Shown: positions 16,163 through 33,582, counted from the stretch's first letter. The stretch: DNA of 64,000 nt from Actinomycetota bacterium (GCA_048498775.1 JBEHXI010000001.1:48485-112484); one strand, 5' to 3'. Translations and numbers: made by a program. The notes: a model not told the origin generated them from the letters alone.

Positions 16163-17188
16163 TCAGACGCGGACGCCGAACTCGACCGGGCCTATGGTGC
16201 TGATCGACTCGTAGCGGACGCTGGCGCCGGTGTGCGGCGCGTGCAGGACCATGCCGTTGCCCGCGTACAGGCCGACGTGGTGCAGGTCGCCGAAGAAGAA
16301 GACCAGGTCGCCCGGCTGGAGCTGGCTCTCCGAGATGCGCGTGCCGACATCGGCCTGCTCGTAGGTGGTGCGCGGCAGCGACACACCGGCCTGCGAGTAC
16401 GCCCACTGGGTCAGGCCGGAGCAGTCGAAGGAGCTCGGCCCGGTCGCGCCCCACACATACGGGTCGCCTATGCGGCTCTGGGCGGCGGAGAACGCGGCGG
16501 CGGCGCGCTGCGAGGCGGCGGCGCCGGCGCCCAGGATCGACCGGAGGCTGTCGCGGCTGGCGCGGTCCTGCGCCGCGGCGAGCGCCGCGCGCTGCTGGGC
16601 GGTGAGCGAGTTCAGCAGGTCCTGGGCCTTGGCGAGCTTGTCCTGGACCTCCTTCTTCTTCTCCGCGAGGTCCTTGCGGGTGTTCTGGAGCTCGGCGAGC
16701 TTGGCCGCCGCCTCGGTGCGCTGCTGGTCCAGCAGCCGCTTCTGCTCCTCGACCTGGCGCAGCGCGTCGGCCTGCTTGCTGCTCATCTGGTCGAGCATCG
16801 AGGCCTTCTGCAGGTAGTCACCCGGATTGGAGGAGAGGAAGAGCTGCACGGAGGGGTCGATGCCGCCGCTGCGGTACTGGGCCGCCGCGAGACCGCCGAG
16901 ACCGTCGAGCAGCCGGTTGAGCTGTGCCTGCTCCCGGGCCACCTGGTTCTCCAGGTCGTCGACCTGCTGCTGGAGCTTCTTCTGCTGCTCCTGGGCGCCG
17001 TCATACTGCTCGGTCGCCTGCTCGGCCTGCTGGTTGAGCTGGTCCACCTGCGCCTTGACGTCGGAAGCGCTGGGCTTGGGAGCGGCGTTCGCGGCCTGGC
17101 TGGACAGGGCGACGGCCGCGGCAGCGGTGGCGGTCAGAACGGTGACCCGCGTACGACTCGCGGGTTTGGCACGACGGTGGGACGCCAC
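16163..17188 (-). CDS. secreted NlpC/P60 peptidoglycan endopeptidase with coiled-coil N-terminal domain
   Basis: GTG start (VASHRRAKP) after GAAGGAG. Signal peptide ending AANA, then a Gln/Leu/Glu-rich coiled coil. C-terminal NlpC/P60 core YVWGATGPSSFDCSGLTQWAY ... HHVGLYAGNGMVLHAP. Confidence 0.85.
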   Translation of the reverse strand: MASHRRAKPASRTRVTVLTATAAAAVALSSQAANAAPKPSASDVKAQVDQLNQQAEQATEQYDGAQEQQKKLQQQVDDLENQVAREQAQLNRLLDGLGGLAAAQYRSGGIDPSVQLFLSSNPGDYLQKASMLDQMSSKQADALRQVEEQKRLLDQQRTEAAAKLAELQNTRKDLAEKKKEVQDKLAKAQDLLNSLTAQQRAALAAAQDRASRDSLRSILGAGAAASQRAAAAFSAAQSRIGDPYVWGATGPSSFDCSGLTQWAYSQAGVSLPRTTYEQADVGTRISESQLQPGDLVFFFGDLHHVGLYAGNGMVLHAPHTGASVRYESISTIGPVEFGVRV

Positions 17189-17214
17189 GGGAGACGGGCA
17201 CTCCTTCTTCCTAC

Positions 17215-17372
17215 GGCCGCCTACCGGGTGAGCTGTCGGGTTCGGGCCGGAAGCAGCCCTACGGAGCCTCACCGCATCGGTCAATGCGGCCCGGACCCCG
17301 ATTCACCCCGGGAAGGTTGGTTCCCCGGCTCCGTGCGTCGGCGTCCCCCCTCGTACGCGATCCGACGCGTCG
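17215..17372 (-). promoter_or_regulatory. ydaO/yuaA-type cyclic-di-AMP riboswitch in the NlpC/P60 5' leader
   Basis: The minus strand reads ...ACGGAGCCGGGGAACCA...CCCGGGGUGAAUCGGGG...CCCGAACCCGACAGCUCACCCGGUAGGCG. This matches my recollection of the ydaO consensus blocks (GGGGUGAAUC; CCGAAxCCGACAGCUxACCxxGUAxGCG). It ends about 10 nt before the RBS. Confidence 0.7.
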
Positions 17373-22649: not shown

Positions 22650-25073
22650 TCAGCAGCCCGCCGGGAACGGGGACGGCGCCCCGCCCCAGGGGCCGCCGTC
22701 CGTCCGCGTGACGGTGGTGTCGGTGCCGGACGGGTCCAGATCGGTGTGGCTCAGCGTGATGTCGGCGTACTGCGCCTGCGTCGCGGTGGCGTCGAAGTGG
22801 ACGTCCCGCAGGGTCAGTCCGAGCCGGTGGGCGGTGTCGTAGCCGTTGAGGACGGACACCGCCGACGGGGCCGAGTCGGTGGCCCGGGCGCCGGTGACGG
22901 TGATGGACCGGAAGTCGGGGACGGGCCCGCCGGTCGGCGTCGCGTAGGAGTAGTTCGGGTCGATGTCGATCAGGTACCGCACGTCGCGCATGCAGGTGCC
23001 GGCGTAGGTGACGTGGGTGACGGGCCCGCCGGCGCCGGGGTAGCTCTTGACGCGGATGCCGTTGTTCAGCGTGCTGTAGGTGCCGGTGGCGTCCTTGCCG
23101 TCCACGAGGTTGCCGGTGAAGAGGATCGAGTCCAGTCCGTAGGTGGTGCCGCTGCCGATGGACAGGCCGTGGGTGCCGTAGCAGCGCAGCCCGCGCACGG
23201 TGACGGCGGACTCGGCCGAGGAGTTGGTGGTCAGGGCCACGCAGTCGTCGCCGTCGTGGATCCAGGAGTCGGCGATGGTGGACTCGGTGGAGGAGTCCAG
23301 GTCGACGCCGTCGGTGTTGAGGGTGGTGTCCGGGGTGTCGACCCGCAGCCCCCACACGGTGGCGCCGATGGACTGCGAGATGAACAGGTGCTGCTTGGGC
23401 GAGTTGACCAGGGTCAGGTCGTAGGCGGTGAAGCCGTCGGCCCGGTTCGCCTGGACCAGGCGCGGGTTGACCTGCTTGAGCCCCTCCTTCTTCGCGGTGA
23501 CCGCCTGGTCCCACCAGGAGGCGGTGGTTCCGAGGACGGGCAGGTCACCGCGGCCGTCGATGGTGCCCTGACGGCCGTGGGCGCGGACCCCCTCGACGCC
23601 GGAGCCGCGGCCGGTGACGGTGACGAACGCGGCGCACCCGCTGCTGCTCGTCCCGATCGAGCCGCAGACGGCCTTGCCCGGCTGCTGGTAGCGGGCGGCA
23701 TCCCGGCTCGCGTAGAGGGTGACGTCGGCGTCGAGCACCAGGTGTTCGCCGGCGTGCACGGTCAGCGGCGCGGACAGGAAGGCGGTGCGCGATCCGCCGC
23801 CGGTCAGCCGCACCGCCTGCCCGGTGCCCGCGCAGGCGTCGAGCGCGGCCTGGATCCTCGCGGTGTCCGGCGGGGCGGCCTCGTCGGCGGCGCTGAACGT
23901 CCGGGTGCCCGACGGCAGTTCGGCCGCCACGCTGTCGCATGTGGCGGGAAGGGACGGCGCGTGGACCGGCCGCCGGTCGCCGAGGGACGGCGGGGCGGCG
24001 GTGGGCGGCGCGACGGGGTTCCAGGAGTCGCTGCCCGCCAGGTAGGCCGTCGCGGTGTACCGGGCGGCGGTGGCGCCGTCCAGCTGCGGGCGGGCGGCCG
24101 AGGCCGTGGTGGCGGCACCGGGACCGGAGTCGCCGTACTCGCCGTAGCGGCCGGCCGTCCAGCCGGCGCCGGAGATGCCGAGCCAGGGCGTGGTGGTGCT
24201 GACGGCCTGCGGCAGCACGGTGTCGCGGATGACGACCTGCGGGTCCGCCGAGGTGTTCGGCCGCCAGGCCCTGCCGAGGTACAGCGTGCCGTTGCCGAGC
24301 GTGGTGTTGACGGTGGAGCCGGTGAGCAGGATGCCGTAGGCGTGGGTGGACCAGGTGGCGGGCGCGGTCAGGTAGGCGGCGCTGTAGATGCCGTCGTTCA
24401 ACGCGTTGACGGCCGAGCGGTCCACCACCAGGGTGCCGTTGCCGAAGATGAAGTCCACGTCGCCGTCGATCTCGGAGCCGTAGACGTACTGGCGCGTCTG
24501 GGCGCCGGGGTCGCGGCTCCAGGTGAGCAGGGTGTCCTGGTGCCCGTGGAAGACGTCGTCGCGGTAGACCTGCCGGTCGCCCTCCATGGCGATGGCGACG
24601 GCCTGGGTGTGGGTGGAGCCGACCTCCGGGTGCCGGGTCTTGTCGAAGGTGTTGGCGAAGGTGACGTGCTCGGCGGTGAAGTCGCTCGCCAGGGCGTGGA
24701 CGGTGGCGGAGCCCTCGGTGCCGTAGGGCTGCCCGGTCGACGGGTCGGTCTCGCCGTTGTAGTGCCCGGCGGTGATGGTGACGTCGGCGGGGTTGCCGGT
24801 GGCGCCTTCGAGGGTCAGGTGGGTCTTGGCCGCCGGGATGGTGAGCGTCTCCTGGTAGGTGCCGGCGGCCACCGAGATGACGTACGGCCGGGCCGGGTTG
24901 TCGGGCACGGCGTTCACCGCCGCCTGGACGCTGGTGTACTCCGCGCCGCCGTGGGCGACGGTCAGCACGACCGGGACGTGCGGGCCCGCGTCGGCGAGGG
25001 CGGTGGGCAGGGGACCGCACAGCACGAGTGCGGGGATGCCGAGGAGTCCGGCGAGTATCCGGCGTGGTCGCAT
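22650..25073 (-). CDS. secreted bifunctional pectinesterase (CE8) / polygalacturonase (GH28)
   Basis: 807 aa from MRPRRILAGLLG, with GAGGA RBS and a signal peptide. CE8 motifs QAVAIA, HGHQDTL, GDVDFIFG, LGRAW. GH28 motifs NTDGVDL, HDGDDCVA, GTHGLSIGS, GIRVKS. Confidence 0.85.
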   Translation of the reverse strand: MRPRRILAGLLGIPALVLCGPLPTALADAGPHVPVVLTVAHGGAEYTSVQAAVNAVPDNPARPYVISVAAGTYQETLTIPAAKTHLTLEGATGNPADVTITAGHYNGETDPSTGQPYGTEGSATVHALASDFTAEHVTFANTFDKTRHPEVGSTHTQAVAIAMEGDRQVYRDDVFHGHQDTLLTWSRDPGAQTRQYVYGSEIDGDVDFIFGNGTLVVDRSAVNALNDGIYSAAYLTAPATWSTHAYGILLTGSTVNTTLGNGTLYLGRAWRPNTSADPQVVIRDTVLPQAVSTTTPWLGISGAGWTAGRYGEYGDSGPGAATTASAARPQLDGATAARYTATAYLAGSDSWNPVAPPTAAPPSLGDRRPVHAPSLPATCDSVAAELPSGTRTFSAADEAAPPDTARIQAALDACAGTGQAVRLTGGGSRTAFLSAPLTVHAGEHLVLDADVTLYASRDAARYQQPGKAVCGSIGTSSSGCAAFVTVTGRGSGVEGVRAHGRQGTIDGRGDLPVLGTTASWWDQAVTAKKEGLKQVNPRLVQANRADGFTAYDLTLVNSPKQHLFISQSIGATVWGLRVDTPDTTLNTDGVDLDSSTESTIADSWIHDGDDCVALTTNSSAESAVTVRGLRCYGTHGLSIGSGTTYGLDSILFTGNLVDGKDATGTYSTLNNGIRVKSYPGAGGPVTHVTYAGTCMRDVRYLIDIDPNYSYATPTGGPVPDFRSITVTGARATDSAPSAVSVLNGYDTAHRLGLTLRDVHFDATATQAQYADITLSHTDLDPSGTDTTVTRTDGGPWGGAPSPFPAGC

Positions 25074-25104
25074 GGGTTTCCTCACCCTGGCATTGATATG
25101 ACAT

Positions 25105-25120
25105 ACGTCAGGTCTGACGT
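25105..25120. promoter_or_regulatory. 16-bp palindrome ACGTCAGGTCTGACGT upstream of the pectinase gene
   Basis: Perfect 7+7 palindrome inside a locally AT-rich patch (about 25090-25132), 32 nt upstream of the pectinase start codon. No cognate regulator identified. Confidence 0.3.
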
Positions 25121-25285
25121 CTGATATACGATCGCGGCCGGGCCATGGGCCGTCAATAGGTGTGCAGCCGCCGACCTCCGGCCCGCGCGCCGGGGCCCTT
25201 CGGCACGTATCCGCGCGGCGCGCACCGGCGTTTGCTGGAGTCCGCCGCACACCGGGAGGGGCGGCACGACCGGCTGGAGGACGCC

Positions 25286-26218
25286 ATGCCCGCACCCCGC
25301 ACCACCCGCCTGGCGGCACTCGCCGCCGCGTTGCTGCTGCCGGCCGCCATCTCCGCCTGCGGGGGCGGCGGTTCACCGGCCGGACCGGCGTCCGGTTCCC
25401 CCACCGTCAGCGGCACGGCCGGGCCGTCCTCGGCCGCACCCGGCGCCACCGCATCGGGCGGTACCTCGGGCGGCGCGTCCGGCGGCCCCGCGGCGACCAC
25501 CCCGGCCACCGTGCAGGCGTCGGTGTACTTCCTGGACGGCGAGCACCTGTCCCCCGCGCACCGCCGGGTGGTGCCGCCCGGCACCGCCGCCGGAGCGGTG
25601 CGCGCCCTGCTCACCGGCCCCAGCGCCGCCGAGCGGGCGGCGGGCCGCGGCACCGCGATCCCGCCCGGCACCGCCCTGCGCGGCCTGTCGGTGCACGCGG
25701 CGACAGCCACCGTGGACCTCTCCGGCCGCTTCGACGACGGCGGCGGCAGCGCCTCCCTGCGGGCCCGCCTCGCCCAGGTCGTCTTCACCGTCACCCAGTA
25801 CCCGGCCATCCAGCGGGTGTCGTTCGCCCTGGACGGCAAGCCGGTGAAGGTCTTCGGCGGGGAAGGCCTGATCCTGGACCACCCGGTGAACCGCGCCGAC
25901 TTCGAGGACGTCACCCCCGCGGTGCTGGTGGAGTCCCCCGCACTCGGCGACACGGTGCGCAGCCCGCTGCGGGTGCGGGGCACCGCGAACGTCTTCGAGG
26001 CCCGGTTCCGGCTGCGGCTGACCGACGCCTCCGGGCACACGGTGGCCGACGTCCCCGTACAGGCCACCTCAGGCACCGGGACCCGCGGCTCCTTCGACGT
26101 GACGCTGCGCTTCCCGGGCGCCCGGACCGGCCGTGGCCTGCTGACCGCCTACTACTCCTCCCCCAAGGACGGCAGCCCGGTCACCGTGGCCCGCGTTCCG
26201 GTCGAGCTGACCCGGTGA
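25286..26218 (+). CDS. lipoprotein with GerMN and Gmad2 (Ig-like) domains
   Basis: GGAGG RBS. Lipobox LLLPAAISAC followed by a Gly/Ser/Ala/Pro linker. GerMN-like block (VYFLDGEHL...ALLTGPSAAERAAG...TVDLSGRF...VVFTVTQYP), then a Gmad2-like C-terminus. Confidence 0.75.
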   Translation: MPAPRTTRLAALAAALLLPAAISACGGGGSPAGPASGSPTVSGTAGPSSAAPGATASGGTSGGASGGPAATTPATVQASVYFLDGEHLSPAHRRVVPPGTAAGAVRALLTGPSAAERAAGRGTAIPPGTALRGLSVHAATATVDLSGRFDDGGGSASLRARLAQVVFTVTQYPAIQRVSFALDGKPVKVFGGEGLILDHPVNRADFEDVTPAVLVESPALGDTVRSPLRVRGTANVFEARFRLRLTDASGHTVADVPVQATSGTGTRGSFDVTLRFPGARTGRGLLTAYYSSPKDGSPVTVARVPVELTR

Positions 26219-28391: not shown

Positions 28392-29558
28392 ATGAGTCAG
28401 GCGTTCGGCAACTACCAGAACGAGATCTACCTTGAGGGGCTCGCGGGCGTCGTGCCCCGTTTCCCCCTGACCTACGCCGAGCTGGAGTCCGGGGCGCAGG
28501 CCGCGCTGCCGCCCTCGGTGTGTTCCTACGTCGCCGGGGGTGCCGGCGACGAGCACACCCAGCGGGCCAACGTCACCGCCTTCGAGCGCTGGGGGCTCAT
28601 CCCCCGGATGTTCGTCGGGGCCGCCCAGCGCGACCTGACCGTCGAGATGTTCGGGATGACGCTGCCGTCTCCGCTGTTCATGGCGCCGATCGGGGTGATC
28701 GGGCTGTGCGCCCAGGACGGGCACGGCGACCTGGCCACCGCGCGGGCCGCCGCCCGCACCGGCGTCCCGATGGTCGCCTCCACTCTGTCCGCCGATCCGC
28801 TGGAGGCCGTCGTCCCGGAACTCGGCGAGACCCCGGGGTTCTTCCAGCTGTACACGCCCACCGACCGGGAACTGGCCGAGAGCCTGGTGCGCCGCGCCGA
28901 GCAGGCCGGCTTCAAGGCCATCGTGGTCACCCTGGACACCTGGGTCACCGGCTGGCGTCCCCGCGACCTGGCGGCGGGCAACTTCCCCCAGCTGCGCGGG
29001 CACTGCCTGGCCAACTACACCAGTGACCCGGTCTTCCGCGCCGGGCTCCAGCGCACCCCCGAGGAGGACCCGCAGTCCGCGATACTGCGCTGGGTGCAGG
29101 TCTTCGGCAACCCGCTCACCTGGGACGACCTGCCGTGGCTGCGTTCGATCACCAGCCTGCCGCTGATCGTGAAGGGCCTGTGCCACCCGGAGGACGTCCG
29201 GCGCGCGAAGGACGGCGGCGTCGACGGGATCTACTGCTCCAACCACGGCGGCCGGCAGGCCAACGGCGGCCTTCCCGCGCTGGACGCCCTGCCCGGTGTG
29301 GTGGAGGCGGCCGACGGGCTTCCCGTGCTGTTCGACTCGGGCGTCCGCAGCGGCGCCGACATCGCCAAGGCGATCGCCCTGGGCGCCACCGCCGTCGGCG
29401 TCGGCCGCCCCTACGCGTACGGCCTGGCGCTCGGCGGCACGGACGGCGTCGTGCACGTCCTGCGGTCCCTGCTGGCCGAGTTCGACCTGCTCATGGCCGT
29501 CGACGGCTACCCCACCCTGGCGGACCTGACGGCGGAGGCGCTGCGCCGCGTGGGCTGA
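28392..29558 (+). CDS. FMN-dependent alpha-hydroxy-acid oxidase family (lactate 2-monooxygenase-like)
   Basis: 388 aa from [17 protein letters not shown] (GGAAGAGGG RBS). Motifs [46 protein letters not shown]. Confidence 0.88.
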
Positions 29559-29641: not shown

Positions 29642-32470
29642 TCAGGGCACCTGGGTGTAGGTGCCGCTGGCCCACAGGTAGCCGCCGAGGCCGGGGCCGC
29701 CACCGCTCTTGTAGACCACCAGGTTCCCGTCGTCCTGCATGATCGCGTACGCGCCGGAGTGTCCGTAGGTGCCGGTGGACCACAGGGCGCCGCCGCTGCC
29801 GGGGCCGCCACCGCTCTTGTACACCACGAAGTTGCCGTCGCTCTGCATGTACGCGTACGCGCCCGAGTGGCCCGAGGTGCCGGACGACCAGATGGCCTTG
29901 CCGTCGCTGTTGCGGTACATCACCAGGTTGCCGTCGAGCTGGACCACCAGCCGGGTGTACTTCGCCTGCGTCCACCAACCGGCCCGCAGCCTGGTGCCCG
30001 AGCCGATGGTCTTCGACCGCGCGTAGGTGCCGCTGGACCACAGGCCGCCGCCGACGCCGGGGCCGCCACCGCTCTTGTAGACCACCAGGTTCCCGTCGTC
30101 CTGCACGGTGGCGTAGGCGCCGGAGTTGCCCCAGGTGCCGCTGGACCACAGCGCGCCGCCGCTGCCCGGCCCGCCCCCGCCGGCGTACACCACGAGGTTG
30201 CCGTCGCTCTGCATGTACGCGTACGCGCCCGAGTGGCCCGAGGTGTTGCTCGCCCAGATCGCGGGGCCCCGGCCGGTGCCGCCGGTCTTCAGGTACGCCA
30301 CCAGGTTGCCGTCGGTCTGCATGGTGAGCGTCACGGCCGAACTGCTCAGGCTGCGCCCGGGGATGAGGAACTGGCCGGACTGCATGGTGGTGCCGGACGC
30401 GGACGGCGCCACCGAGGCGACCACGTTCACATCGGCCGCGTTGACGTACGCCAGGCGGTGGTTGAAGCGGATCGGGTAGTACACCGTGTTGCCGCTGACC
30501 AGCGTGCGGTCGCCCGGCGCGCTGCCGTCGATGTTGACGGAGTTGTAGAAGTCGCCGTTCTCGGCGGTCCCGGCGGCGTACGACTGCCCGGCCGCGATGG
30601 TGTACTTCGACAGCGGGGTGACCGGCTGCGCGGTGATCGTGCTCGGGTAGGCGCTCGCCTCCGGGTAGGCCCGGCCGTAGACGGGGACCGACGACACGCC
30701 GTCCGGGACGGTGACGAGTGGCCGCGTACCGCGCTCGAGGGGGACGGTCCACCGCCCGCCCGGGTTGTTGAACCACGCCTTCTGGCCGCCGTACCAGATC
30801 GCCGTCCAGTCACCCTGCTGGGCGGCCACCACGAACTCCTGGCCGGCGGAGGCCTTGTCGCCCCAGTCGGCGCCGGCGGTGGTGCCCGCGCCGGAGGACC
30901 GCAGATACGGGTCGGACAGCAGCGCGTCGCTCGTCGACGGGCCGGTGCGCAGGTAGACGAAGTTCGCGGCCTGCGCGGTGGCGTTGTCGACGGGCGGCTC
31001 GTAGGAGGAGCTGAACGGCGGCGCGATGCGGACGAGTTCGCCCGCCTGGAGCGGCGCGCCGGCCGGGTTGCTGCCGATCGGGGCGCCGGCCAGCGCCATC
31101 AGGTGCGTCCAGTCCCAGAACGGCCCCGGGTCCCAGTGCATCCCGGCCACGTACGCGTCCAGCGGGCCGGGCACGTCGTCGTGGCCGATGACGTGCTCGC
31201 GGTCCAGCGGGATGCCGTACTTCGCGGCCAGGTACTTCACCAGCGCGGCCGACGACTCGTACTCCGACTCGGTGTACCAGCTCGCCCCGGATATCGCGTA
31301 GCCCTCGTGCTCGATGCCGATCGAGTGCATGTTGAGGAACTTGTTGCCCGCGTGCCAGGCGGTGTCCTTGTCCTGCACCATCTGCGTGACCAGCCCGTCG
31401 GAGGAGCGGATCACGTAGTGGGCGCTGGAGTAGGCGGTGGGGTCCTTGAACTGGTTGAGGGTGGCGTCGTAGCCGCTCTCGGTGTCGTGGATGACGATGT
31501 ACCGGATCGCCTCGCCGTCGGCGGGGCGGTCGGTGACGTCGTAGTTCCCGTACGAGCTCAGGTCGTTGGGATCCGTCTGGGCGTAGGCGGCGGGAACGAA
31601 GTCGCAGGTCAGGCCGGTCGGGCACTCGGGCGTCGGGGTCGTGGTGCCGGCCGCGGGGACGGCGTAGGCGGCCGGTGTGGCGGTGGCGAATCCGGCGGCC
31701 GCGGCCGTGGGCGACGCGCTCGCCGTCGTGGCCTTCGGCCGCAGCCCGGGCTGGGCGGGCAGCGTGACCTGCTGGCCGTCGGCGGTGGTGCGGCTGAGGC
31801 CGGTGCGCAGGTGCGCGAAGACACGCTGGGCGAACATCGCCGCGCCCCGGCCGTCGGGCGACTGGCTGAAGCGCTCGACGGCCGGGAACCACTGCGCCGG
31901 GTCCGCCGGCAGCGTCCCGGTCGCCTCACGCTCGTACTGCGCCAGCAGCGCGGCGCCGCCCCGGACGCTCTGCCTGTCCTGACCGCGCAGGTCGCTCGCC
32001 GGAGCGCCGATCAGCTTCGCCGCGGCCTCCAGGGTGTGCAGGGCGGGCGTGTCGGTCCGGACGGTGCCGACATCGGAGAGCACCCGCTGCGACGGGTGGA
32101 ACGATCCCCTGCGGTCGTCGCCGCGCAGGTTCAGCTCCGCCATGCGGTCCTTGAGCGAGGGCTTGCGCACATCGGCGGCGGAGACCTGGGTCAGGCCCAT
32201 GACGTTGTAGTTGCCGGTGGTGCTGGGCTGCCCGTCGTGGGTGTCCCAGCGGCTCTCCTGGTACGCCACCGCGAGCAGCACGCTCGCCGGGACGTGGAAC
32301 TCGTGGGCGGCCGCGGTGAACTCGCCCTGCAGCGCGTCCGATCGCGGCCCGTCCGGCTGCCCCGCCTCCGCCACCGCGGCGATCCCGGCGGCCACCACGG
32401 CAAGCGCGCCCGCGATCCCCAGTGACACCCGCAGATGCGATCTGCGGTGTTTGCGCTCTTTTCGGTTCAC
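29642..32470 (-). CDS. secreted multidomain cell-wall hydrolase: SLT-like, N-acetylmuramoyl-L-alanine amidase (amidase_2), SH3b-like region, two bulb-type (MMBL) lectin domains
   Basis: GTG start after GGAGGACGGGGAGCA. Signal/anchor LGIAGALAVVAAGIAAVAEA; AVAYQESRW. Amidase_2 blocks IRYIVIHDTES, AHYVI, WHAGN, IGIEHEG, HVIGHDDV. Six QxDxNxVxY motifs in the last 245 aa or so. Confidence 0.85.
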   Translation of the reverse strand: MNRKERKHRRSHLRVSLGIAGALAVVAAGIAAVAEAGQPDGPRSDALQGEFTAAAHEFHVPASVLLAVAYQESRWDTHDGQPSTTGNYNVMGLTQVSAADVRKPSLKDRMAELNLRGDDRRGSFHPSQRVLSDVGTVRTDTPALHTLEAAAKLIGAPASDLRGQDRQSVRGGAALLAQYEREATGTLPADPAQWFPAVERFSQSPDGRGAAMFAQRVFAHLRTGLSRTTADGQQVTLPAQPGLRPKATTASASPTAAAAGFATATPAAYAVPAAGTTTPTPECPTGLTCDFVPAAYAQTDPNDLSSYGNYDVTDRPADGEAIRYIVIHDTESGYDATLNQFKDPTAYSSAHYVIRSSDGLVTQMVQDKDTAWHAGNKFLNMHSIGIEHEGYAISGASWYTESEYESSAALVKYLAAKYGIPLDREHVIGHDDVPGPLDAYVAGMHWDPGPFWDWTHLMALAGAPIGSNPAGAPLQAGELVRIAPPFSSSYEPPVDNATAQAANFVYLRTGPSTSDALLSDPYLRSSGAGTTAGADWGDKASAGQEFVVAAQQGDWTAIWYGGQKAWFNNPGGRWTVPLERGTRPLVTVPDGVSSVPVYGRAYPEASAYPSTITAQPVTPLSKYTIAAGQSYAAGTAENGDFYNSVNIDGSAPGDRTLVSGNTVYYPIRFNHRLAYVNAADVNVVASVAPSASGTTMQSGQFLIPGRSLSSSAVTLTMQTDGNLVAYLKTGGTGRGPAIWASNTSGHSGAYAYMQSDGNLVVYAGGGGPGSGGALWSSGTWGNSGAYATVQDDGNLVVYKSGGGPGVGGGLWSSGTYARSKTIGSGTRLRAGWWTQAKYTRLVVQLDGNLVMYRNSDGKAIWSSGTSGHSGAYAYMQSDGNFVVYKSGGGPGSGGALWSTGTYGHSGAYAIMQDDGNLVVYKSGGGPGLGGYLWASGTYTQVP
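29657..30388 (-). repeat. two tandem 366-bp units (one MMBL lectin domain each) inside the lysin-lectin gene
   Basis: 29691-29739 is identical to 30057-30105, and 29831-29879 is identical to 30197-30245 (49 nt each, offset exactly 366 nt). Flanking sequence is similar but diverged. Confidence 0.85.
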
Positions 32471-32587
32471 TGCTCCCCGTCCTCCATGGCAGGTGCTCTG
32501 GATCACCCGGTGGGGGACGGGCAGGGGGACGCTAGCAGACGGTTGGGCACTGCACGGAACGGGTATCGGGTTCCGGCCGCACGGCAC

Positions 32588-32679: not shown

Positions 32680-33366
32680 TCACGGCTCGCTGAGCACGCG
32701 GACCGAGCCGACGGGGCTGCCGGTGGTGCGGGCCGCTTCGTCGCGTACCGCGGCCAGCGCCTGCGGGGTGAGCCTGGACGTCTCGATATGGATGTAGACG
32801 GTGCCGGCCTGCGGTTCGACGAACGCCTGCCCGCCGAACAGCCCGGACACCTCACGCGTCAGCGCCGACACATCACCCCGGGCCGCCGGCGAACCGGCCG
32901 CCACCGGGGCGAGGAGGGCCGCGCTGTACACCTCACGCGGCGCGAGGGCCGCACGCAGTTGGTGGGCCGTCGCGTCACGGGCGGCGCGGGCCCGGGCCGC
33001 GTCGGTGTTCCACAGCCGCAGCACGATGTGCGAGCGGTGCGGATCCTCCGCGCCGACCACCGTCCAGTTCCGGACGCCGGCCGCCTCCAGCGCGCGGTAG
33101 GCGGCGAACAGACGCCGCTGTCCCACGGCGGAGTGGTCGGCCGTGCCGAGGGTGAGGTCGTAGACGCGGTGCCGCAGCACCGCGGTATCCGGCGGATGGG
33201 TCCGGTCGGGTGACGGCGCGGCCGGCCGCGGGGCGCTCGCCGCGGAGGCGGGCATCGCCACGCTCGCCGTCGCGCCGGTGAGCAGTACCGAACCGGCCGC
33301 GGCCGACAGCGCCGTGCGCCTCATCAGGGAGGCGGTCCTGCGGGGTGCCTTGTGCCGGGGAGCCAT
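32680..33366 (-). CDS. hypothetical secreted protein
   Basis: ATG after GAAAGGGA. Signal-like N-terminus MRRTALSAAAGSVLLTGATASVAMPASA. High GC3. No family recognised. Confidence 0.6.
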   Translation of the reverse strand: MAPRHKAPRRTASLMRRTALSAAAGSVLLTGATASVAMPASAASAPRPAAPSPDRTHPPDTAVLRHRVYDLTLGTADHSAVGQRRLFAAYRALEAAGVRNWTVVGAEDPHRSHIVLRLWNTDAARARAARDATAHQLRAALAPREVYSAALLAPVAAGSPAARGDVSALTREVSGLFGGQAFVEPQAGTVYIHIETSRLTPQALAAVRDEAARTTGSPVGSVRVLSEP

Positions 33367-33582
33367 GCTGATCCCTTTCTCGAGTCGCCGGCGGGTGAAC
33401 CTCGCTCCTACCCGGGAACACCGGCCCCACACAAGGACATATCGTGATGAACACCTCAACCATCAGGGGCGGTTTTCGGCCATCGCAGGCTGTTACCGCA
33501 TTGTCGCCATGAGCGGACGCACGACGGGGCACCAGGCGGGCAGGGGGGCACCGCTCCCCGCCGATGGGAGGTTCCACCAAGC

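Follow-up and report, generated by a model that had tools for sequence, protein, structure and literature searches.

The 64,000-nucleotide stretch of an Actinomycetota bacterium genome analysed here (GCA_048498775.1 JBEHXI010000001.1:48485-112484; hereafter the window, with all coordinates given as positions in the whole stretch) codes on its minus strand, at 29642-32470, for a predicted secreted peptidoglycan hydrolase in which a zinc amidase core is followed by a tandem pair of MMBL (bulb-type) lectin domains. The open reading frame ends at the minus-strand stop codon 29642-29644 and has several candidate starts upstream, of which the GTG at 32468-32470 has a GGAGGA motif 9 nt upstream and yields a product of 942 residues, identical to the database protein P0001. 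The features of the gene, in the direction of translation, are as follows.

32480-32485, minus strand: ribosome-binding site GGAGGA, read from the sequence.
32363-32470, minus strand: GTG start and predicted Sec-type signal peptide, residues 1-36 (MNRKERKHRRSHLRVSLGIAGALAVVAAGIAAVAEA, followed by GQ), with the cleavage point placed from an AxA motif.
31751-32338, minus strand: lytic-transglycosylase/lysozyme-like domain, residues ~45-240, with E72-S73 followed by G92-L-T-Q95 (sub-threshold Pfam matches, AlphaFold, Foldseek).
31571-31750, minus strand: Pro/Ala/Thr-rich linker, residues 241-300, ending in an invariant ECPxGLxC cysteine pair, C283 and C289 (alignment).
31091-31516, minus strand: predicted zinc N-acetylmuramoyl-L-alanine amidase domain (Amidase_2), residues 319-460 (Pfam, PDB alignment).
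30401-31048, minus strand: two SH3b-like beta domains, residues ~475-690, conserved family-wide (model and Foldseek).
30023-30388, minus strand: MMBL lectin domain 1, residues 695-816, with three QxDxNxVxY sites (Pfam, NCBIfam, PDB).
29645-30022, minus strand: MMBL lectin domain 2, residues 817-942, with three QxDxNxVxY sites (Pfam, NCBIfam, PDB).
29642-29644, minus strand: stop codon, convergent with a flavin mononucleotide (FMN)-dependent dehydrogenase gene ending at 29558.

The N-terminus, read directly from the sequence, consists of a basic n-region, a 20-residue hydrophobic core and an AEA tripeptide preceding a glycine, which points to Sec-dependent export of a modular peptidoglycan hydrolase of ~97 kDa. 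This agrees with the initial annotation, made from the DNA alone, which had described an exported 942-residue protein; the motifs that it quoted are likewise all present, namely AVAYQESRW (residues 67-75), IRYIVIHDTES (residues 322-332), AHYVI, WHAGN, IGIEHEG, and HVIGHDDV. P0001 belongs to a 90% cluster of six sequences, of which five are full length, on separate ENA/NCBI contigs of up to 124 kb, and orthologues with 72-75% identity come from three isolates of Streptomyces and a JGI metagenome; the fusion is thus genuine and not an artefact of assembly, and a chimera could be dismissed since the same fusion recurs in independent contigs.

Sequence and models alike place the catalytic engine of this protein among the zinc-dependent Amidase_2 enzymes of the AmpDh2/AmiD type. 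The Amidase_2 profile (PF01510) matches residues 319-450 with 116.6 bits (E=1.2e-33), well above the curated Pfam cut-off of 26 bits, bearing out the complete Amidase_2 core that had been read from the motifs. The domain also aligns with Pseudomonas aeruginosa AmpDh2 (4bj4, E=3.4e-10), AmpDh3, AmiD, and AmpD, and the alignment to AmpDh2 spans the IVxH (IVLH), IGIE, IGHxD (IGHSD), and DPGP motifs. Four residues, H328, E387, H430, and D447, are invariant in an alignment of 13 diverse relatives; going by AmpD and AmiD, we take the two histidines and the aspartate to be the zinc ligands and E387 to be the catalytic glutamate. Enzymes of this type cleave the amide bond between N-acetylmuramic acid and L-alanine, removing the stem peptides from the glycan strands. 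By sequence, the active site is intact, and the domain looks catalytically competent.

The core that carries this amidase belongs to a very large family. A full-length search gives 3464 matches, with the listed relatives covering 68-77% of the query at 49-75% identity (46-75% over the ~685-residue core), and the named ones are nearly all annotated as N-acetylmuramoyl-L-alanine amidases of Streptomyces, Kitasatospora, Actinacidiphila, and Streptacidiphilus, with several species having two members. The first ~685 residues of the protein are collinear with this unnamed Streptomycetaceae family, which combines a transglycosylase-like domain, Amidase_2 and two SH3b-like domains; the domain order, the catalytic residues and the linker cysteine pair, which presumably forms a disulfide between C283 and C289, are the same, making it a member of the family. 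Beyond residue ~685 the alignment breaks down into unrelated tails that take the place of the last ~260 residues: whereas most members end in FG-GAP/VCBS repeats, the commonest type, the protein studied here ends in the tandem MMBL pair, and others bear two ricin-B lectin domains, a triple repeat, an LAxTG sortase-type ending, or no tail at all. The tail-less members have 640-700 residues, and those with three ~100-residue repeats have 1045-1100. The ricin-B type is represented by P0243 of Kitasatospora sp. NPDC058965, recovered in a search of 1.84 billion representatives, with an identical type of core and two ricin-B domains. The sortase type is seen in P0006 (L005/L006:8001-10961), whose tail domain ends in LAQTG followed by a hydrophobic stretch and RRIK, which, from LAxTG sorting in Streptomyces, we take to be a class-E sortase signal.

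The MMBL-tailed version makes up only five 90% clusters. In a neighbor-joining tree of the amidase-SH3b core region, covering the five MMBL-tailed proteins and their relatives, these five group in a single clade, which also includes P0006 as a nested member and has an FG-GAP clade as its sister. The single clade indicates that the lectin tail was acquired once, in one sub-lineage, by module replacement, and the alignments as a whole depict a core that stays the same while its tail can be swapped. This bears on two views expressed in the initial annotation. First, it presented the lectin module as welded to the hydrolase in an undescribed manner, which overstates the novelty, as the core is very common and its tail is routinely exchanged, even for a ricin-B pair. 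Second, its statement that no characterized member with this architecture exists does stand for the exact architecture: we found none, and in a review of the domain architectures of wall hydrolases we see PGB1, SPOR, SH3, LysM, SLH, CWB1, CWB2, and similar domains as partners of Amidase_2, with no lectin, ricin or FG-GAP among them. Further, no functional study of any member of the family, including the FG-GAP-tailed amidases of Streptomyces, was found in the literature. The protein is thus a rare variant of a very common enzyme family, with the fusion tail being what is unusual about it.

With regard to the tail itself, the B_lectin profile (PF01453) matches in two stretches with 43.9 bits (cut-off 32.4 bits; E=4e-11), which upholds the two lectin domains and dispels the concern that the C-terminal ~245 residues might lack a significant B_lectin match. 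Residues 694-921 align over both domains with the two-domain lectin SCAfet (1dlp, E=2e-15), pyocin L2 (2e-13), pyocin L1 (2e-12), and putidacin L1 (1.6e-10); altogether 25 PDB lectins match the tail at E<1e-3, and each half aligns separately with single-domain plant lectins and the Mycobacterium smegmatis lectin 4oit. The Q.D.N.V.Y motifs start at residues 718, 754, 790, 844, 876, and 912; all six are intact, as had been claimed, they are kept in the orthologues, and a six-frame scan finds no others in the window. These alignments identify the tail as a genuine tandem MMBL pair, homologous in sequence to the lectin domains of LlpA and the L-type pyocins, with six intact mannose-type sugar sites as judged by their motifs.

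The same alignments raise the question of whether this might be a true LlpA-type bacteriocin, one that kills through its tandem lectin, with the hydrolase part in an accessory role. The NCBIfam model LLB_putidacin (NF033557) does hit the tail with E=7e-41, and the homology to pyocins L1 and L2 and putidacin L1 extends over both domains. Its score of 140.5 bits, however, falls far short of the 275-bit cut-off, and the protein ends ~5 residues after the last lectin strand, leaving no room for the C-terminal extension that LlpA activity needs. LlpA, pyocin L and putidacin L1 consist of the lectin pair and that extension only, without a signal peptide, whereas the present protein has a signal peptide and 690 residues of upstream domains. 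All parts of LlpA, including the C-terminal region, are reported to be needed for activity; LlpAs are described as binding D-rhamnose-containing lipopolysaccharide and acting on BamA of Gram-negative cells, to which the C-terminal peptide is delivered. Gram-positive targets lack BamA. The score, the layout of tandem plus extension and the missing signal peptide of LlpA all being at variance with what is seen here, the protein falls outside the LlpA family. Moreover, its six sugar sites are all intact, unlike those of the specialized LlpA domains, and we consider an LlpA-type killing mechanism highly improbable. The analogy drawn in the initial annotation accordingly holds for the tandem module, which is homologous, and fails for the protein as a whole.

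Between the amidase and the tail, the AlphaFold model of residues 455-700 (pLDDT 88.2) finds in Foldseek the phiSM101 endolysin Psm (4krt) as its best match (E=5e-4, probability 1.0), although the TM-score of such tandem-SH3b matches is only 0.25, the orientation of the domains being different. Further fold matches are to Trichomonas NlpC1/2, a Bacteroides DPP-VI, Bacillus cereus 3h41, and the isolated SH3b domains 2krs and 2kt8. Pfam reports no SH3 domain anywhere in the protein; hence the SH3b-like stretches noticed initially gain some support at the level of the fold and none from profiles. The SH3b-like pair and the transglycosylase-like domain flank the amidase in the whole family, and the models suggest that both serve as peptidoglycan-recognition parts. 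The domain logic of a catalytic unit joined to wall-binding units is that of SH3b-containing endolysins and autolysins (phiSM101 Psm; AmpDh2/AmiD), to which the protein adds a lectin pair and a lysozyme-like domain, and from which it differs in being exported and chromosomal. An origin as a remnant prophage endolysin, for which the amidase-plus-SH3b layout and the middle region's resemblance in fold to a phage endolysin, its best match, might speak, can be set aside as barely credible: the protein has a signal peptide and 942 residues and belongs to a chromosomal family of thousands, no phage genes lie nearby, and the GC content at third codon positions (0.95) is like that of the surrounding genes and typical of the host.

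The N-terminal domain is a more complicated case. Pfam gives only sub-threshold matches at residues 49-104, namely SLT (PF01464; 16.9 bits against a cut-off of 21.3), Glucosaminidase and SLT_4, and comparison to the PDB at the sequence level returns only chance matches. The AlphaFold model of residues 38-262 (pLDDT 87.6, falling below 50 in the linker from model residue 214 onwards) recovers mainly lytic transglycosylases (MltF, Slt, MltE, MltC) and a few other lysozyme-like wall hydrolases in Foldseek, with probabilities of up to 1.0, yet with E-values of ~0.03 and TM-scores of 0.41-0.46. These models point to a distant lysozyme-like fold, and the SLT-like motif pointed out earlier thereby finds some backing in structure comparison (probability 1.0, E 0.03, TM 0.44) and not in the Pfam profile. 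Family-1 lytic transglycosylases are expected to have E-S and, ~20 residues on, GLMQ; here E72-S73 is followed by GLTQ, and E72 would thus occupy the position of the catalytic glutamate, a correspondence that comes from the order of the motifs and the range of the Pfam match and not from a residue-level structural alignment.

Conservation at this position tells against a second enzyme. Across 102 relatives (P0001-P0120), 64 have Q at position 72, 18 have E, seven M, six S, and five L, such that a residue of the set Q/M/S/L occupies it in 82; within the lectin clade alone it reads E, E, Q, E, E. The change of E to Q is the standard means of inactivating such enzymes, as in the PDB entries described as 'Slt inactive mutant E503Q' and 'MltE-E64Q'. 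Since the expected catalytic glutamate is a glutamine in most relatives, a second lytic activity is doubtful; judging from the sequences, the transglycosylase-like domain probably does not act as a second enzyme across the family, with glycan-strand binding being the more likely conserved role, while the domain of the present protein itself is perhaps still active. The initial annotation's two cell-wall-cleaving activities were thus an overstatement, with the residue concerned being Gln in 64 of the 102 relatives and flipping even inside the lectin clade. As a side observation, most of this large amidase family seems to bear a naturally inactivated lysozyme-like domain.

The lectin tail recurs on other proteins. 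A search with the tail alone recovers 5035 proteins, many of which are stand-alone proteins of ~290 residues in Kitasatospora and Streptomyces, with others being fused to CHAP, NlpC/P60, trypsin, or Rv2525c-like domains. A genome scan covered 185,579 species genomes, from which the best 79 tail loci were examined, and the counts that follow are accordingly lower bounds. The amidase-MMBL fusion is present at least once among these loci, in Streptomyces humicola RB6PN25. At least eight Streptomyces species (L008, L010-L012, L014-L016, L020) have the tail, with 57-79% identity, attached to a protease domain of ~455 residues, which we label S53/sedolisin-like because a Burkholderia protein containing a Pro-kumamolisin domain is 33% identical to it. 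In at least seven species (L009, L013, L017-L019, L074, L003:13370-16141), a secreted domain of ~660 residues without a Pfam match is always followed by the same tail. Streptomyces humicola has all three, i.e., amidase-, protease- and 660-residue-domain-tailed proteins. The lectin tails that lie adjacent to each other in this species are only 64% identical, which rules out recent gene conversion between them.

More distant tandem MMBL domains have other partners. Among the best 79 proteins, the Pfam-recognizable partners include GH25 (three), Rv2525c-like (three), polysaccharide deacetylase (two), and trypsin (two), with NlpC/P60, M23, patatin, Pro-kumamolisin, and Amidase_2 occurring once each. 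The patatin case is a protein of Microlunatus ginsengisoli (L039:8252-10690), in which a patatin-like phospholipase is joined to a tandem MMBL lectin. All three GH25-MMBL fusions among these loci (L047, L049, L061) come from metagenome-assembled genomes of Myxococcales, and the only independent protein uniting Amidase_2 with two MMBL domains (P0370/P0390, 614-639 residues) comes from a metagenome-assembled genome of the Myxococcaceae; myxobacteria are described as predators in the literature. Myxococcus xanthus LlpM was considered as a further lectin-lysozyme fusion and discarded, as the published accounts describe it as a GH19 lysozyme-like protein. Separately, five Candidatus Saccharibacteria genomes (L051, L060, L064, L073, L081) code for proteins of 480-665 residues in which a tandem MMBL at the C-terminus follows N-terminal portions without a Pfam match. 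This is of note, as Saccharibacteria live attached to actinobacterial hosts.

Reviews of lectin-like bacteriocins also remark that MMBL domains often occur within larger bacterial proteins and that tandem-MMBL genes are found in actinobacteria. Two groups of characterized or described proteins come closest to the present one. Albusin B of Ruminococcus albus 7 is likewise a secreted Gram-positive protein that unites an MMBL lectin and a domain predicted to cleave peptidoglycan; however, it has a single N-terminal lectin and an M15 peptidase, in contrast to the two C-terminal lectins, Amidase_2, transglycosylase-like and SH3b-like domains seen here, and Pfam finds no peptidase M15 in the present protein. 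Bacteriocin activity has been demonstrated for albusin B; the role of each of its domains has not been studied. The mycobacterial proteins MSMEG_3662 and MUL_3720, for which no function is known, are likewise actinobacterial proteins that couple an MMBL domain with QxDxNxVxY sites to a peptidoglycan-binding module, in this case LysM, but each has only one lectin domain and lacks a catalytic one. Given that albusin B is characterized and that tandem MMBL domains recur in databases alongside other wall hydrolases, the concept of a lectin-hydrolase was less novel than initially portrayed. What is new is the MMBL tail on a known core, and the protein is best described as a modular wall hydrolase with an unusual targeting module.

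At the locus, the neighboring genes in the window code for a convergent FMN-dependent dehydrogenase, an AsnC regulator, an epimerase, a secreted Ala-rich protein, a DUF4230 protein, and BrkB. An operon or an immunity partner was sought among these and rejected, with no window neighbor being kept beside the orthologues in the contexts examined. The gene directly upstream (32680-33369, minus strand, across a gap of 210 nt) codes for an Ala-rich protein of 229-259 residues with a signal-peptide-like N-terminus and no Pfam match, and is not found beside orthologues. The position of the amidase-lectin gene varies between the window and four other genomes, being common to only two of those, and transposase remnants lie near it in two of these contexts. 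The two that agree, S. humicola RB6PN25 (L003:1-16141) and Streptomyces sp. NPDC001093 (L004:1-15012), share a mini-locus comprised of an RHS/YD polymorphic toxin gene (3300-3400 residues, on the opposite strand), a gene for a 176-residue membrane-anchored protein (65% identical between the two), the amidase-lectin gene and a 923-residue lectin-tailed gene; an RHS toxin gene thus adjoins the amidase-lectin in two of the four isolates with context examined. The 923-residue secreted protein of S. humicola bears its own six-site tandem MMBL tail, and its counterpart in NPDC001093 is split into 310 and 399 residues with the tail lost. The core, being near-ubiquitous in the Streptomycetaceae, comes close to the universal conservation that the initial annotation had named as a mark of a developmental autolysin; the lectin-tailed version, which is patchy and mostly non-syntenic, does not.

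The only Rfam match in the window is a cyclic di-AMP (c-di-AMP) riboswitch of the ydaO type (RF00379, 63 bits, 17202-17353, minus strand), which lies directly upstream of a secreted NlpC/P60 gene (~16163-17200) and marks that wall hydrolase as riboswitch-controlled. The leader of the amidase-lectin gene has no Rfam match, and riboswitch control of this gene was dismissed on that account.

Elsewhere in the window (22650-25406, minus strand) is a gene for a 918-residue fusion of a pectinesterase (residues 150-458) to a GH28 polygalacturonase (residues 601-882), which points to a plant- or soil-associated saprophyte. Such an organism might use the lectin to hold the enzyme on mannans of fungal, plant or microbial origin among soil debris, with the amidase freeing peptides from dead walls and no killing involved. 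The secreted pectinesterase-GH28 fusion is typical of a saprophyte, at locus L001, which also has a transposase nearby, a GH46 chitosanase gene adjoins the orthologue, and the lectin-tailed proteases and deacetylases would fit a polymer-degrading secretome. Nevertheless, fungal and plant mannans hold no substrate for an amidase, and the enzyme already has two peptidoglycan-binding parts; we regard scavenging of necromass as unlikely, while noting that it is mechanistically hard to tell from a lytic attack on other cells, as both act on foreign walls.

The preferred of the readings considered, to which we give about even credence, is that the protein acts as a lectin-targeted, foreign-directed exolysin, analogous in principle to albusin B. 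In this proposal, the lectin pair would be a multivalent, high-avidity address label and not itself the toxin; it would dock on a surface with mannose- or D-rhamnose-type glycans, whereupon the amidase, perhaps aided by a still-active transglycosylase domain, would weaken or lyse the wall. The surface would more likely be that of other Gram-positive (actinobacterial) cells, as competitors, prey or dead biomass, than that of the producer's own hyphae. We lean towards a foreign target because the bacterial MMBL proteins for which the literature consulted cites a shown function are antagonistic (LlpA, LlpB, albusin B); because the gene is accessory, with its five 90% clusters, its presence in at least one of the best 79 loci, its mostly non-syntenic placement and the transposase remnants; because an RHS/YD toxin gene adjoins it in two isolates; because the partners of the tail are degradative enzymes, including the patatin phospholipase; and because GH25- and Amidase_2-MMBL fusions occur in predatory Myxococcales. 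A weaker point is the leader without a c-di-AMP riboswitch, unlike that of the NlpC/P60 gene in the window. 

The principal alternative is a self-directed autolysin or surface-retained enzyme, whose tail would bind a glycopolymer or an O-mannosylated protein on the producer's own hyphal surface. The amidase would in this way stay on the cell, together with the other enzymes that bear lectin tails, and work in wall turnover, in branching, in the cleavage of septa or in the maturation of spores. O-mannosylation of proteins, as it occurs in Streptomyces, would supply such a self ligand. Several observations favor it, most of them also counting against an exolysin. P0006, the closest relative without a lectin, which falls inside the lectin clade, has at the tail position an LAQTG signal that would fix the protein to the producer's own wall, and hence the tail position may serve self-retention. 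The core family is widespread and conserved, with two members in several species, which would suit housekeeping remodeling, and both of its wall-recognition parts, SH3b-like and transglycosylase-like, are invariant. Beside the amidase-lectin gene in the window there is no evident immunity gene, and the RHS neighborhood is absent from both the window and L001. A wall-binding module common to several exoenzymes is also the pattern of self-anchoring SLH, CWB2 and choline-binding repeats. The rarity invoked above comes from the genome scan, where the count is a lower bound (at least one among the best 79 loci). Finally, the mycobacterial LysM-B-lectin proteins MSMEG_3662 and MUL_3720 have been described with wall-associated partners.

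On the other side, the lectin variant is patchy, changes place between most genomes and has transposase remnants or an RHS gene in its vicinity, unlike a core developmental gene; it lacks a riboswitch leader of the kind preceding the NlpC/P60 gene; the patatin phospholipase and protease partners make little sense on the cell's own surface; and comparable fusions occur in predatory Myxococcales. On balance, we consider a self-directed role a real though minority possibility. The exolysin proposal can be extended, with distinctly more reserve, to an undescribed class of lytic enzymes addressed by lectins: in a small clade of Streptomyces, the amidase, the S53-like protease and the 660-residue-domain protein, which have one tandem-MMBL cassette in common, might conceivably constitute a secreted kit that recognizes a mannose- or rhamnose-type wall glycan and lyses competing actinobacteria, as a Gram-positive counterpart of the lectin-like bacteriocins in which the lectin serves for specificity only, with the GH25- and amidase-lectin fusions of the Myxococcales being prey lysins of the same kind. 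This wider scheme we put forward as a tentative and somewhat doubtful one.

Another fusion of a hydrolase to a binding module is in itself unsurprising; the swappable tails, the lectin cassette shared between enzymes and the natural E/Q polymorphism are what pose testable questions, and they do so in a very large Streptomycetaceae amidase family that appears to be without experimental characterization, a gap in the field. Should the tail bind the producer's own surface, it would represent a new non-covalent wall-anchoring module in Streptomyces. If instead the lectin pair sets the target range, the family would amount to a plug-and-play muralytic core with MMBL, ricin-B, FG-GAP, and sortase address modules, which would be useful for narrow-spectrum enzybiotics against actinobacteria, including those with mycobacteria-like envelopes. 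If the exolysin proposal is true, lectin-mediated antagonism between bacteria would extend past the Gram-negative case of LlpA and BamA.

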